DNA of 64,000 nucleotides from an uncultured delta proteobacterium (GCA_963745025.1 CAVUWD010000020.1:192001-256000), one strand, 5' to 3'; shown: positions 47,110-64,000, counted from the first letter of the stretch. The notes: generated by a model from the letters alone, not told the origin. Numbers and translations are program-made.

Positions 47110-47952
47110 ATGGGCGCAGAGCGTCTGCAGAAGCTCCTCGCGCGAGCAGGCGTCGCCTCGCGGCGCGCGGCCGAAGCGCTGATTCGCGCGGGGCGCGTGA
47201 GCGTCAATGGAGCGATCGTCGGCCAGCTCGGCACGAAGGCCGATGTCACGAAGGACGACGTTCGACTCGACGGGGAGCGGCTACGGCAGCCGCGAGCCCG
47301 CGTTCTCGCTCTTCACAAGCCGCCCGGGGTCGTCACGACGCTCTCCGATCCCGAGGGGCGCCCGACGATCCGCAGCTGCCTTCCCGGCAACTTCGATCGC
47401 GTGTTCCCGGTCGGACGGCTCGACTTCCATTCGAGCGGGCTCCTGCTCCTCACCAACGACGGCGAGCTGGCGGGGCGGCTGCTTCACCCGCGTTTCCGCA
47501 TCCCACGGACCTATCGCATCAAGATTCGCGGCCATCCGAGCGCGGCGGCCCTCGACCGCCTGCGGCGCGGAGTGAAGCTCGACGACGGCGTCGCCGGCCC
47601 CGCGCAGGTCGACGTGGAAACGCTGCTGCCCACCAAGGCGTGGCTCCGCATCACGATTCGCGAAGGGCGGCGGCGGGAGATCCGCCGCATGTGCGAGGCG
47701 GTCGGGCATCTGGTGGACCGGCTCGTGCGAGTGCGCTTCGGGCCGATCGAGCTCGGTCGGCTCGAGCCCGGCAAGTGGCGGCCGCTCACCGAGCGAGAGC
47801 GCGAGTCGCTGCGCGCGGCCGTCGGCCTCGCGCAGCGATCGCGGAATACCGGCTTGACTTCGCGCACCTTGGCGGTTAAGCAACGACGTTCAAGCCGCGA
47901 ACGCGCGGCGATGCGCGGGGTGGAGCAGTCTGGTAGCTCGCGAGGCTCATAA
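47110..47952 (+). CDS. rluB: 23S rRNA pseudouridine synthase, RluB/RsuA family (ORF as given runs into the tRNA)
   Basis: ERLQKLLARAGVASRR S4 domain, PVGRLD, GLLLLTNDG, EGRRREIRRM; follows scpAB. Confidence 0.85.
   Translation: MGAERLQKLLARAGVASRRAAEALIRAGRVSVNGAIVGQLGTKADVTKDDVRLDGERLRQPRARVLALHKPPGVVTTLSDPEGRPTIRSCLPGNFDRVFPVGRLDFHSSGLLLLTNDGELAGRLLHPRFRIPRTYRIKIRGHPSAAALDRLRRGVKLDDGVAGPAQVDVETLLPTKAWLRITIREGRRREIRRMCEAVGHLVDRLVRVRFGPIELGRLEPGKWRPLTERERESLRAAVGLAQRSRNTGLTSRTLAVKQRRSSRERAAMRGVEQSGSSRGS
47854..47882 (+). promoter_or_regulatory. Putative sigma70 promoter for the tRNA
   Basis: TTGACT-N17-TAAGCA about 30 nt upstream of the tRNA. Confidence 0.35.
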
Positions 47953-47987
47953 CCTCGAGGTCGTAGGTTCAAATCCTACCCCCGCAA
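47914..47987 (+). tRNA. tRNA-Met(CAT), initiator type; CCA not encoded
   Basis: cgcggggtggagcagtctggtagctcgcgaggctCATaacctcgaggtcgtaggttcaaatcctacccccgcaa; C1xA72 mismatch, A11-U24, TTCAAAT T-loop. Confidence 0.95.
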
Positions 47988-48503
47988 TTTTCAATGGCAA
48001 ACCCAACGACGCGGGCCGGGTCTATCCGGCCCGCGACGGTGGCCGGTTCTGACCCATTCGCGGGGGTCAAAACCAGGTCCCCGTCGAGCAAACCGAGGAT
48101 CATCGTCTTTGCCGTCGGCACGTCCGTCTTGATGGCCCGCCGTAGCCCCCGCAGGTAGCTCCGCAGGTCCCGGGGGTCGATCGCCGTGGGGGCCCGTACG
48201 GCCCGCTTCTCGAACTTCGCTCGCTCAAGATCGGCGGTAAGGCCCGCGATCTCCTGCTCGACCGCCGCCAGCCGGTCGCGCACGGCGGTGAACGCCTCGC
48301 CCCCGCTGCCGATGGCGTCCAGCCATCGCTTCTGCTCGGCCTTCGCCTGATCGAGCCGTTCGCGCAGCTCGTCCTCTCGTCCGCTGGTCCGGTCGATCGC
48401 CCGTCGAAGCGCGTCGTTGACCGCCGTCGCGAGCGCCGCGATGTTCTTCCTGGTCATCGCCTCGGCCGCATCGCCGCACCGCAGGAACCCCGTGAGCAAG
48501 TAG
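47969..48503 (-). pseudogene. Large serine recombinase C-terminal remnant A (zinc ribbon internally deleted)
   Basis: YLLTGFLRCG joined directly to the coiled coil; ends IENCGGRI* with the stop inside the tRNA T-loop. Confidence 0.75.
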
Positions 48504-48505
48504 AG

Positions 48506-48855
48506 TACTCCACCGAGACCGGAAGAAAGATTACCGGCTTTGATCGATCGGCGCTTGAGGCCCTGAGGACCTACGGATGGCCGGGGAACGTTCGCGAGCT
48601 CGAAAACCGGGTCAAACGAGCGGTGATCATGGCGGAACGAAGAAGAGAGTGGCTCCGGCCGACCTCGAGCTCGACTCGCCGTTCGAGAAGTATCAAGGGA
48701 AGCGGCTTCGCGAGGCTCGCGAGGCTCTCGAAAGAGAGATCATCGAGAAAGCGCTTGCGAAGCACGGCGGCAACATCACTCACGCCGCGACCGAGTTGGG
48801 AATAAGCCGCCCCACGCTGCATGACCTGATCAACAAATATTCCATCGTGATTTAG
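48506..48855 (+). pseudogene. prsR: C-terminal remnant of a sigma54 response regulator, PrsR-like (PEP-CTERM box regulator)
   Basis: GFDRSALEALRTYGWPGNVRELENRVKRAVIMAE, frameshift ~48640, then LREAREALEREII.KAL..HGGNITHAATELGISRPTLHDLINKY Fis-type HTH. Confidence 0.7.
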
Positions 48856-48887
48856 AGAATGGCGACCCGAGCACTTCTGTGCCGAGC

Positions 48888-49017
48888 TGTCGATAATCCT
48901 TACAATTCGACATACGTTTCCGAACTTTAGGATCAAGACAAACGTTTTCGCGCCGTTGCGATTTTGCTCATCTCGGCCAAAGCCCCGTAGGCCCTCGGAT
49001 CGTCGGAAATCTTTACG
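48888..49017. promoter_or_regulatory. Two PEP-CTERM-box-like enhancer sites
   Basis: TGTCGATAATCCTTACA (48888-48904) and CGTCGGAAATCTTTACG (49001-49017); reverse complements fit TGTAA-N7-CGACA; upstream of a PEP-CTERM gene. Confidence 0.6.
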
Positions 49018-49146
49018 GTTACGCTCATTCGTACGGGATGATCAATCACGAAAACGTGGGATATTTCCATCATTTCTCGTCCTCGGCTCGACCTGGACCA
49101 ATTCTTGGAGGAGAACTCGGGTATGATGTCTTCTTAGGAGCGAGGA

Positions 49147-61658: not shown

Positions 61659-62075
61659 TAGATGTGTTTCCTTGTACGATCGTTTGAACCGTTCGCGGAT
61701 CCGTGCCTCCTTCCCGAACGCAAACGCCAGAACGACGGCTAACGGGGCCGAGGCATGTGAGCCGAGCGTGGGCTTGCTCTAGGCTACGCAGTGCGAGGCG
61801 CGAACTTACAAGCCTCGCGGCCGATCGATGCACCGCCAGAGCGCACGCACATTGACAAGGGTGTCAGCTTGGGGATCCGCGGCAACTCTCATCGTGTCCA
61901 CATCCACCATCCCCGGCCGATCTGCGCCGCGTCGTTAACACTCTCACGAGCGAGTGTCAATACTGAAGCGGCCCAAAGTTGTGGCAGGGACTGGAGCGTG
62001 CTGCGCTTCTCGCCTATCCTGACAAGCTTTTGAGCCTCTTCGAGCCCCATACGGAGGCGATCCGCAAGGGCAAGG

Positions 62076-62250
62076 CACGTCCATTGCCTTCGGCACTCCT
62101 GCGCGACCCACCTGCTCGACGCGGGTGAGCCGATCGACTTCGTCCAGGATCACCTGGGTCACCGGTCGATCGAGAGCAGTCTGGTCTACGCCCGAGTCTC
62201 CGACCGCAGGCGCACCAAAACCAAGGTCGAAGCCGATCCCGCTGCAATCG
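62076..62250 (+). pseudogene. Tyrosine recombinase C-terminal remnant (FimB/FimE-like)
   Basis: HVHCLRHSCATHLLDAGEPIDFVQDHLGHRSIESSLVYARV; not in ORF track; in-frame stop upstream at 62031. Confidence 0.75.
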
Positions 62251-62375
62251 GCGTGATGGGCCTCACGGAGCCGTTGGTGGCGGGCGATTCTTCCCCGCAG
62301 GTAGCCGATGAAGTATCTAGGCGTTGGGGCTGCCCGCCGGGCCGGGTCCGGGAGCGCAGCGTAGGAAGGTGTGGT

Positions 62376-62580
62376 GTGGACGAAACGACGCGACAACGAC
62401 TCCGCGAGTATCTCGCCGAGGTCAAGAACCTCCCCAACGAGTCGGCGAAGACCCATTGCTTCTCCGGGTTGGTTGGTCAGCTCTTTCCCGGTTCCGGCGC
62501 GACCTATGAAATCGCGAAGGGTACGGAGAAGACCATCCGCATCGGCAACAAGCTCGGCCGGATCGACGCGTACTACAAAA
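62376..62580 (+). pseudogene. N-terminus of a probable type IIG-like restriction-modification protein, cut off by ISL3
   Basis: LREYLAEVKNLPNESAKTH.F..LV..LFP...GTEKTIRI...GRIDAYY, consistent with a PD-(D/E)xK nuclease lead-in; ends exactly at the IS end. Confidence 0.5.
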
Positions 62581-63318
62581 GGTTCTTCCGGAATCAGTGT
62601 GGGTAGAGATCGAGACCACCACAGTGGAAGTAGATCGCGGTCTTGAAGTTTTGGCGGTTGCGGAAGCCGCGAGCGGTGTAACGGATCCACTGAATCTTGG
62701 AGTTCAGCCCTTCACTGGCGGCGTTGGTGATCCCGTGGCGCAGATAGCTCAGGACGTTCTCGAGCCTGGTGTGAAGCATCCGCGCCTTTTGCTTGATCGG
62801 TTCCAGGCGAGATCGGATCGCCCAGGAGTACCAGCGGCGGAAGTGGTTCCGCGCGGCGCCGACGTAGCTGTAGTCCCAGAGCGACATGATGGTTTCCTTC
62901 AGCGCCCAGGCCCGGGCGACCTTGAGATTGCTCCGGCGCAGCGGGCCGAAAGCTTTCCAGGCTTCGTCGGCAAAGGATTCGGGATTGCGTAGCCAAGTGT
63001 ACTTCGTCCCGACCAGACGTTCGTCGTGCCGCACCAGCAGCTCTCGATGCTCGGCTCGACGAACTCGATCGACGGCTTCGTTGAGATGCTTGGCGATGTG
63101 GAACTTGTCGAAGACGATCTTGTCCTGGGCGGCGGGAATCCGGGCGAGGGTGGCTTGGACGTAGGGCTCCCACATGTCCATCGCGATGGCCTCGATGCCC
63201 TCGCGCTGAGCAGCGCTGAGCCCCACCGCCCAGAAGGCCTCCAGGCTCTCTTGCTTGCGATCGTCAGCAACAAACAGGACCCGTGGCCCTTCAAGATCGG
63301 TCACGGTGTCGCGCCGGG
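62581..63318 (-). mobile_element. ISL3-family element, 5'-truncated
   Basis: Terminal GGTTCTTCC at 62581; AMDMWEPY, IVFDKFH, TNAASEGLNSKIQ...ARGFRN...IYFHCGGLDLYP; N-terminal half absent. Confidence 0.88.
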
Positions 63319-63324
63319 TCAAAG

Positions 63325-64000
63325 CCGACAGCCCCGCCCCCCGTCGAGCCCGACCGCTGCCAGATCTGCGGATCGATCGACGCCTCCTGTCACGCGAACC
63401 GAAAGCGCGACGGATCGTGAACGCTGACCCGCTCAACATCTTCGAACCGGTGTCAGTGCTGCCCGACCCGCCGTCGAGGCGCGACACGCCCGAGCTACGA
63501 TTGCTCATCGCACTCCTCGAAGACGCGATCGCGCTCTCGACCGGTCGATTACGTTCCGGCGCTCGGCGGCGACCACACCTCGCGCGGCCGCGCGAACGCC
63601 CAGCGGTGCGCCGTCGAAGAGGCGCGGCGGTGGATCGTCGAAGGCGATCGCGGATTGATTTCGTTCGACGATTGCTGCGGTGCGCTCGGCCTCGACCCGG
63701 GCTTGGTTCGTGCGGCGCTGCTACGGAAAGAGAGGCGTCGATGAAATGCAAGGTATGTGGTGTCCGCCCCGCGAACAGCCGCAGGCACCCCGGGCTTTGT
63801 GCCAGGTGCTCGGTCGCCAACGCAGGGCGTGGACCCGGTCCACGCCGATCCCCGATCGCGCCCGGAGAAATGCGGAGGCGATCCGGGCAAAGATCGGAAA
63901 ATCTTGCGATCGCTCTCGCTCTCGCTCGTTCCAACACGCCCAGCAGATGTAACAGGAAATCTTCTCATGAAATTCTCGACCCAATTTTCCACGCTTGCCT
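63325..64000 (+). repeat. Second copy of the three-gene backbone module (homologous to ~54420-55120)
   Basis: Diverged homology up to 63675, then 63676-64000 identical to 54796-55120; gene 2 has an extra T near 63550. Confidence 0.9.

Follow-up and report, generated by a model that had tools for sequence, protein, structure and literature searches.

Integrative and conjugative elements (ICEs) as well as cis-mobilizable elements accrete in tandem at tRNA genes by means of tyrosine integrases, and in staphylococci composite islands of the SCC/SCCmec type (SCC, staphylococcal cassette chromosome) are moved by CcrAB or CcrC at the gene rlmH (orfX). In Dehalococcoides, islands (DsiB/DsiA) are arranged in tandem behind ssrA, the tmRNA gene, which is present in a single copy, and are separated by direct repeats of about 20 bp of its 3' end. 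Beside attL they encode, on the reverse strand, a CcrB-like large serine recombinase (LSR) of about 540 aa. They insert within or close to the T-loop region, and gene and repeats consistently differ by one base. Their cargo theme is reductive dehalogenases, and they are integrative and mobilizable without conjugation genes, according to the passages on the ssrA islands in McMurdie et al. 2011 (PMC3146451). For the C089B-type nickel islands of Mesorhizobium, the corresponding part of PMC10990125 describes a serine recombinase at the 3' end of tRNA-Met, with size and cargo varying among strains. Here we analysed a stretch of 64,000 nucleotides from an uncultured delta proteobacterium (genome G000, GCA_963745025.1, contig C20, positions 192001-256000; referred to as the window), in which remnants of LSR genes and genes for PEP-CTERM proteins lie behind an initiator tRNA gene. 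The contig extends for another 15.5 kb and ends at position 79526 in window-equivalent (w.e.) numbering.

The region from 47988 to at least w.e. 72800 is very probably a tandem array of at least three islands with four LSR copies, each island having been inserted by an LSR at the 3' end of the single initiator tRNA gene and having decayed afterwards.

Initiator tRNA gene and attachment cores

The integration target is a tRNA-Met(CAT) gene of the initiator type (tRNA-fMet) at 47914-47987 on the plus strand, which was the sole tRNA gene found by ARAGORN in the window. It begins with CGCGGGG and ends with CCCCGCAA, and its sequence shows the C1xA72 mismatch that is typical of bacterial initiator tRNAs. 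Among the 52 tRNA genes of the assembly three carry the CAT anticodon, and only the copy at 47914-47987 starts with CGCGGGG. The GC content changes from about 0.70 ahead of the tRNA gene to 0.57-0.65 behind it (genome 0.66), and composition marks no clear right edge of the island.

Three attachment (att) cores were recognised. Core 1 (attL; 47968-47988, plus strand), identified by an alignment of the three joints and a 21-mer search, comprises the terminal 21 bases of this gene, TTCAAATCCTACCCCCGCAAT, that is the T-loop and the 3' acceptor strand. Core 2 (54066-54086, plus strand) is a degenerate copy of the tRNA 3' end, TTCGAATCGCGCCCCCGCAAT, found by repeat finding, alignment and the 21-mer search. 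Core 3, another copy of this end, TTCGAATCGTGCCCCCGCAAT, starts at w.e. 71282 in the same orientation and was detected by repeat finding, self-blastn and alignment. With up to 4 substitutions allowed, the 21-nt tRNA 3' core occurred three times in the 5.6-Mb assembly, always in the array, and allowing up to 5 substitutions revealed no additional core. All three cores share one orientation, and each is directly followed by the C-terminus of an LSR (remnants A, C and D, in this order). By our own arithmetic about one core match would be expected by chance genome-wide, not three that are clustered, co-oriented and located at recombinase ends.

Common to the three cores are the ten bases CCCCCGCAAT and a T-loop-like stretch. 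Since CCCCCGCAAT is identical between the tRNA and both inner cores while T-loop and T-stem differ, the crossover probably took place within these ten bases (proposed segment: CCCCCGCAA), and the incoming island would thereby restore the last bases of the tRNA. Ahead of core 2 lies a conserved right arm of island 1 (53930-54065), regarded as the P arm of an attP-like joint, which is 80% identical to w.e. 71146-71281 ahead of core 3. Both inner joints, with their order of right arm, core and LSR end, look like attP, the form that tandem site-specific integration would leave between neighbours. In attL the T-loop TTCAAAT provides the stop codon of the LSR, and the attP-like joints have a G at this place (TTCGAAT), so that the frame continues. 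The possibility that in joints 2 and 3 the frame beyond the core is a conserved coding tail was considered and rejected: the first 22 codons, counted by eye, had 0, 5 and 5 mismatches on codon positions 1, 2 and 3 and were followed by a frame-shifting indel. As no coding constraint was apparent, the stretch was treated as P arm.

Synteny with a genome of the same genus (G001, 80 kb compared) and one of the same family (G006, 20 kb compared) was lost immediately behind tRNA-fMet.

Recombinase remnants

A Pfam scan of all open frames of at least 75 aa between 47 kb and the contig end (91 and 79 frames) returned one recognisable LSR, located outside the window on the minus strand (L001:8759-9796). 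Remnants were mapped by tblastn against the whole genome, using four full-length relatives (P0001-P0004, 639-705 aa) and the open frame at 47972-48499 as queries, and four were obtained, all on the minus strand. Remnant A (47972-48499; tblastn and translation) comprises the last 176 aa of the protein and has lost the zinc ribbon. Its frame stops within the T-loop of the tRNA, and it shares 65% aa identity with a near-full LSR at the same tRNA in G001. Remnant B (53031-53350) corresponds to the zinc-ribbon region, covering about residues 325-412 of full-length relatives (about 315-412 in tblastn matches to P0002-P0004), and is frameshifted and fused in frame to the start of a small gene, orf99. 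Remnant C (54070-54291) consists of the C-terminal 74 aa and is 77% identical to A on the aa level and 83% on the nt level. Remnant D (w.e. 71289-72793, L001:8289-9793; tblastn and Pfam) covers about residues 60-557 with at least one frameshift, and both the Recombinase domain (PF07508, E 6e-25) and the zinc beta-ribbon (PF13408, E 5e-12) are present.

The Resolvase match of D extends over profile positions 57-143 only, with stop codons upstream, and since it starts at position 57 the region of the catalytic serine is absent. No Resolvase catalytic domain was detected in A, B or C with Pfam or in their translations. As read from these sequences, all four LSR copies are without a working catalytic end and the elements are dead members.

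Remnant A overlaps B (39 aa, 59% identity) as well as C, and C lies at higher coordinates than B on the minus strand; the three are therefore not pieces of one gene. The copies A, B and C and those of G001 and G006 were 59-77% identical in aa, and D showed 39-48% identity to this group (A-type) and 54-56% to P0001-P0004 in tblastn. The top NCBIfam match of D was CcrB with 86 bits, which is far under the cut-off of that model.

The recombinase lineage in other genomes

We screened for the same LSR lineage in one genome per species (79 loci, 1,284,843 bases) and in metagenomes (80 loci, 585,982 bases). At 53 of the 79 genome loci, from many phyla, a tRNA-Met gene on the opposite strand abutted the 3' end of the LSR gene. 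The tRNAs had initiator-like ends in all 53 cases, and in 51 of them the LSR stop codon was located within or past the tRNA gene. Gene and tRNA overlapped by 42-44 nt at 38 loci, by 21-22 nt at 7 and by 86-89 nt at 4, and 2 loci had a longer overlap. Remnant A and the copies in G001 and G006 belong to the 22-nt class, ending in CGGRI with the stop codon in the T-loop. Among the 26 unlinked genome loci, 8 had less than 600 nt of contig past the LSR match and two (L002 and L015) had the tRNA 8-9 kb further on. Linkage was seen in 23 of 80 metagenome loci, and 31 of the 57 unlinked ones ended no more than 120 nt from the match. In the loci compared, the LSR lineage is thus tied to tRNA-fMet across many phyla, with the end of the gene overlapping the tRNA. 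Such a lineage offers ready-made pairs of recombinase and attB for a site that is present in every bacterium. In the literature, supplements aside, we found no paper describing a lineage-wide link of LSRs to tRNA-fMet or a gene-tRNA overlap, and the pairing was encountered in one isolated mention, within the part of PMC10990125 cited above.

G001 carries a near-full A-type LSR at the orthologous tRNA, with a frame broken near both ends, and G006 an LSR stub at the same tRNA. Queried with the G001 LSR, the metagenome contigs contained no closer A-type elements. At locus L002 the LSR island is separated from tRNA-Met by a 7.8-kb element (12542-20456) with genes for a tyrosine integrase, an HNH nuclease and a phage capsid, indicating that stacking at tRNA-fMet recurs beyond the genome studied here.

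Two unrelated integrase families appear to use one tRNA end at L002. The closest intact relatives, at L002 and L003, further encode a small resolvase/invertase (Resolvase and HTH_7 domains) directly upstream of the LSR (L002:9875-10597 and L003:2206-2952). No further Resolvase match, i.e. no second small serine recombinase, was found in the island open reading frames (ORFs) of our genome with Pfam.

Duplications, insertions and erosion

Between the remnants the array contains a repeated Cys-rich module. Copy 1 (54390-55202, plus strand; translations) consists of p86 (with a CxxC motif), p112 and a small Cys-rich zinc-finger-like ORF. Copy 2 (plus strand; blastn and translations) begins at 63340, runs to the window end at 64000 and continues to w.e. 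65671, with p86' truncated next to a transposase remnant of the ISL3 family and p112' frameshifted. In self-blastn, 54543-56232 and 58748-59301 matched 63422-65671 with 96.8% and 94.6% identity. The identity was graded, with 50-91% across p86 and p112 followed by 100% over about 1.36 kb, and a recent, partial homogenisation of two related backbones appears to have taken place. A homologue of p112 (37% over 92 aa) lies in G001 just past the LSR start and is divergent from the LSR gene. No Pfam, NCBIfam or PHROGs match was obtained for p86, p112, the Cys-rich ORF, orf99 or another small gene, orf151, and a PDB sequence search with orf151 and p112 gave none either. Judged by eye only, orf151 looks GIY-YIG-like.

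Module copy 1 is split by a degenerate insertion sequence (IS) of the IS21 family (56233-58740, minus strand; 2.5 kb), which lies in orf151 and is bounded by imperfect terminal inverted repeats. Frameshifts affect its istA as well as its istB, with the Pfam pieces rve, Mu-transpos_C_2 and IstB in different frames, and comparison with the uninterrupted copy revealed a 7-bp target duplication, CGCTCGG. A joint of 56210 to 58748 in a public contig, with 11 other letters between, was considered as an IS-free allele and discarded, because the uninterrupted second copy would give the same joint. The ISL3 transposase remnant (62597-63320, minus strand; PF01610, residues 210-435) comprises the DDE domain only, the N-terminal part of its frame being off-frame filler.

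A promoter-like stretch together with the start of orf99 (VAGGRKT...), a 99-aa minus-strand gene, occurs in three copies of 90-95% identity. Copy 1 (53393-53469, minus strand), which is the one fused in frame to remnant B, is in blastn 90% identical to 59232-59302 and 95% to 65602-65678. The gene orf99 itself (58962-59258, minus strand; GC content at third codon positions 0.85) has an identical copy at w.e. 65332-65628. Two short stretches within 53515-53651 are 89-91% identical to C7:56326-56652 and may represent a small dispersed repeat.

A block of 2.2 kb behind remnant A (48505-50729; blastn) holds the stub of a prsR gene, the PEP-CTERM gene PEP1, orf140 and the 3' part of a receiver gene. 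It is 99.91% identical over 2225 nt to C16:323040-325262, and its left edge lies 6 nt beyond the end of the remnant A ORF, i.e. at the truncation point of A. The surroundings of this second copy (C16:318000-326000, L081:3781-11262) form a second island, in which the 99.9% identical prsR-stub/PEP1 copy is accompanied by a tyrosine integrase gene with a frameshift and by a paralogue of the Bac_transf sugar transferase. At the far end of our contig (w.e. 73900-79526, L001:10900-16526) are genes for a zinc-ribbon protein, an AAA_16/TPR protein of 761 aa and an adenylate cyclase. Paralogues of this set, in dozens of stretches of 72-87% identity on at least 13 other contigs, point to a large expanded signalling family.

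An earlier preliminary description of the window, made from its sequence, had placed three LSR remnants from at least three copies here, all of them broken, along with a duplicated Cys-rich module, a duplicated promoter with gene start, and a set of cargo domains. The positions of the three remnants were borne out, a fourth (D) lying just past the window. The module duplication is real and longer than claimed (63422-65671 in the match), the promoter and gene start exist in three copies instead of two, Pfam and NCBIfam agreed with the domains named, and all recombinase genes are indeed broken.

Cargo genes and their PEP-CTERM context

The first cargo gene, at 48577-48852 (plus strand), is a stub encoding the last 70 or so aa of a PrsR-like sigma-54 response regulator (Pfam HTH_8), whose top NCBIfam match was TIGR02915 at positions 375-444 of 445 with 52.8 bits. 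It is followed by the PEP-CTERM protein PEP1 (XDD4-like; 49147-49875, plus strand), with 20.5 bits to PF07589 in hmmscan, 24.7 in the genome search, and 34.9 bits to NF045504, under the cut-off of 40. A receiver-domain protein (50418-51188, minus strand; PF00072, E 4.8e-27) has its C-terminal 100 or so aa inside the block shared with C16 (edge at 50729) and its receiver domain outside. The priming polyprenyl glycosylphosphotransferase at 51813-52964 (plus strand; PF02397, E 7e-60) scored 302.5 with the general exopolysaccharide (EPS) model TIGR03025 (cut-off 295.55) and 301.8 with TIGR03013, under the cut-off of 393.35; including this gene, the genome contains 5 full Bac_transf genes. The second PEP-CTERM protein, PEP2 (55299-55898, plus strand), reached 30.2 bits with PF07589 and 26.1 with TIGR02595 (cut-off 16), and is present in a second, 100% identical copy, PEP2', at w.e. 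64179-64778. A secreted beta-helix protein with a Pro/Thr-rich tail (59358-61658, minus strand) matched PF13229 with 22.3 bits, under the cut-off of 25.9, and its hydrophobic N-terminus was judged signal-like by eye. Its C-terminus consists of tandem PTPQPSDT repeats followed by a tail of about 90 aa without a PEP-CTERM signal. Beyond the window the array encodes an HATPase fragment, a P-type ATPase and a CAP-domain protein. Broken cargo comprises the prsR stub, the HATPase fragment and one interrupted small gene.

No capsid, packaging or other phage families were found in the island ORFs with Pfam, and PHROGs gave 0 matches for 10 island proteins. There was likewise no sign of an integron, with no Phage_integrase match in 170 ORFs of island and flank and repeats that are tRNA ends, not attC.

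The XrtA/PEP-CTERM EPS system of Haft 2006 reportedly consists of proteins with the sorting signal, XrtA, PrsK/PrsR and a priming sugar transferase of the TIGR03013 type. Four PEP-CTERM hits were found in our genome, three in the array (PEP1, PEP2 and PEP2') and a fourth that is the copy of PEP1 on C16. As this fourth hit also lies on an island, all PEP-CTERM genes of the genome are island-borne. The sole exosortase-family gene (C15:95568-97232, L082:9568-11232) is XrtE-like and fused to a CAAX/Rce1 protease domain, with 215 bits to the XrtE/VPEID model (cut-off 150) and 19 bits to the XrtA model (cut-off 208). Its neighbours, close to the end of a contig, are toxin genes of the HigB-like and PemK-like types. 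XrtA was not found in the genome, which is 92.65% complete, and the best genome matches to PrsR (430 bits, cut-off 502.6) and PrsK (97, cut-off 300) stayed below the cut-offs. A search for VPEID-CTERM substrates was without matches and is uninformative, as the positive control gave none either.

PEP-CTERM hits were present in 4 of 21 related genomes, and no real homologues of PEP1 or PEP2 were detected in 150 other genomes of the class. In G001 the island behind the tRNA encodes two P-type ATPases (one 84% identical to that of the array), a sigma/anti-sigma pair, a phosphorylase and a methyltransferase, and its first 40 kb contain no PEP-CTERM or EPS gene. Up to 80 kb there was no homologue of PEP1, PEP2 or the beta-helix protein, and the sugar transferase had one match of 46% at a distance of 66 kb. 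The nearest PEP-CTERM gene of G001, about 53.5 kb from the tRNA beside an XrtE homologue, is unrelated to PEP1 and PEP2. This XrtE homologue lies about 48 kb from tRNA-fMet, with the PEP-CTERM gene 4 kb away.

Origin of the array and alternative explanations

In the tandem array proposed here, each island would have had its LSR gene on the strand opposite to the tRNA, at the end nearer to it, with the last codons running into the attachment site. Later arrivals would have recombined with the occupied site and left the attP-like joints behind; the structure of these joints is observed and the order of arrival presumed. Since all recombinases have lost their function, the array would now be frozen. 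Subsequent rework included deletions in A, B, C and D, the IS21 insertion, the event that left the ISL3 remnant, a recent internal duplication or conversion of 2.3 kb and the exchange of the 2.2-kb block with the C16 island. Several points weigh against this origin. Canonical LSRs recombine attP with attB only, and integration into an occupied site is here deduced from structure. Remnant B has no att core of its own, and a final attR, with right arm and chromosomal flank, was not found up to the contig end at 79526. The assembly is a metagenome bin with a contamination of 7.6% that contains repeats of 100% and 99.9% identity, and the contigs of public runs (4 of 20 runs, best share of words 0.35) were 150-500 nt long and of low depth, none bridging the att joints. 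No excised form was seen in those short public contigs, which is not decisive.

The mixed bin, the exact repeats of 1.36 kb and 2.2 kb and the lack of bridged joints would also be compatible with an assembly artefact, in which the repeats or the whole stack result from mis-joined contigs. We consider this extremely unlikely, given that two related genomes likewise have this LSR type next to this tRNA, that collapsing or mis-joining identical repeats cannot yield diverged att joints and LSR copies, and that many parts of the region are matched, with 0-1 differences, by pieces from 4 runs belonging to 3 studies. Segmental duplication is in turn present (2.3 kb at 95-100% identity) along with IS elements able to drive rearrangement, and a single island could have had its recombinase end multiplied by such internal events. 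However, divergence among the LSR copies greatly exceeds that of the known duplication, A and C sharing 83% of nt and D belonging to another subfamily. Moreover A, C and D each lie behind their own att core, joints 2 and 3 retain the conserved partner arm, and the identity of 50-91% in the p86/p112 parts is expected of two related elements, not of one that was copied. An origin from one island is therefore highly improbable.

Repeated insertion at the tRNA had also been proposed in the preliminary description, which saw in the region a family of satellite-like elements whose surface/EPS cargo is kept by selection. Three att-like cores, attP-like joints and diverged LSRs speak for the repeated integration, and the linkage of homologous elements to tRNA-Met that it expected elsewhere exists at the genome and metagenome loci; a satellite-like nature is not supported, since no phage family was found in the island ORFs. 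Its search for partner genes had a mixed outcome, with one XrtE-like exosortase gene on C15 and no prsK or prsR above the cut-offs. A depot in which the element family preferentially delivers PEP-CTERM/EPS genes and selection retains them while the backbones erode would account for three of the four PEP-CTERM hits of the genome being in the array and the fourth in another island, for the accompanying priming sugar transferase, secreted beta-helix protein, CAP-domain protein and prsR stub, and for PEP-CTERM frames that are intact although all LSRs are broken; the XrtE-like exosortase could process the proteins. Nevertheless, a simple PEP-CTERM pattern, which recovered 4 of 4 Pfam hits in the genome and added 2 judged false, gave 0 hits across the 159 loci of the lineage (1.87 Mb), of which 79 came from genomes (1.28 Mb) and 80 from metagenomes (0.59 Mb). 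Apart from generic receiver and P-type ATPase matches, no homologues of the island cargo were found in these loci, nor does the surface cargo have any within 40 kb of the G001 tRNA, where the same LSR type is accompanied by different cargo. Only two sequences underlie the three PEP-CTERM genes in the array and their C16 counterpart, with copying at 100% and 99.9% identity; since their number stems from recent copying, it gives no independent indication of retention. The remaining cargo has no relation to the theme (P-type ATPase, HATPase fragment) or is broken, no XrtA was found in the genome, and no PrsK or PrsR reached its cut-off. The claims that selection keeps the surface cargo and that homologous elements are enriched in it are thus not supported, and a selected depot appears very unlikely.

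A broader view, which we judge unlikely, would regard the LSR lineage and the initiator tRNA as a widespread integron-like capture platform with the recombinase C-terminus antisense to the tRNA. The tail of the protein would report integration and could bias the direction of recombination, and all PEP-CTERM substrates of the single XrtE-like exosortase in this genome would come from the frozen array and one sister island.

The cargo of the tandem array is ordinary mixed accessory DNA, including fragments of a foreign locus of the PEP-CTERM/EPS type, and no mechanism selecting such genes is involved. The surface cargo looks like a peculiarity of this genome and not like a specialised gene store. 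For surface biology the result is thus negative: the PEP-CTERM genes are strain-specific passengers, with no evidence for a dedicated surface-gene array. What the locus does offer is a case, from an uncultured lineage of soil or wetland, in which islands with serine recombinases have long used a single essential initiator tRNA gene as their landing pad, and it illustrates how such island stacks freeze and erode.

Comparison with known systems

Tandem accretion of ICEs resembles the array in that one att site is reused, inner hybrid joints are formed and older members decay, and differs in the recombinase superfamily, the chemistry and the logic of the att sites. The Mesorhizobium nickel island, as portrayed in the part of PMC10990125 that treats it, is a single island and not a decayed stack, and it has a traACD mobilization locus. 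SCC elements share with our locus the tandem accretion of LSR cassettes behind one conserved gene, at its 3' end, some members having lost the recombinase and being flanked by target-end repeats. They differ in their protein-coding target, the host phylum, the resistance cargo and Ccr genes that do not read across the attachment site.

As in the Dehalococcoides ssrA islands, co-oriented repeats of the target end separate the units here and a reverse-strand LSR is found at each left end (A, C and D). Further common traits are a target gene present once, insertion around the T-loop and a base by which the gene consistently departs from its repeats. In contrast to those islands, the target is tRNA-fMet and not the tmRNA, every recombinase is dead, neither a small serine recombinase of the DsiA type nor another gene of the integration module was found in the window, and related elements do not repeat the theme of the cargo. 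The pair of resolvase and LSR in the relatives at L002 and L003 echoes DsiA/DsiB. The Dehalococcoides ssrA islands and the SCC composite islands are the closest described parallels, and the array is a known kind of pile-up.

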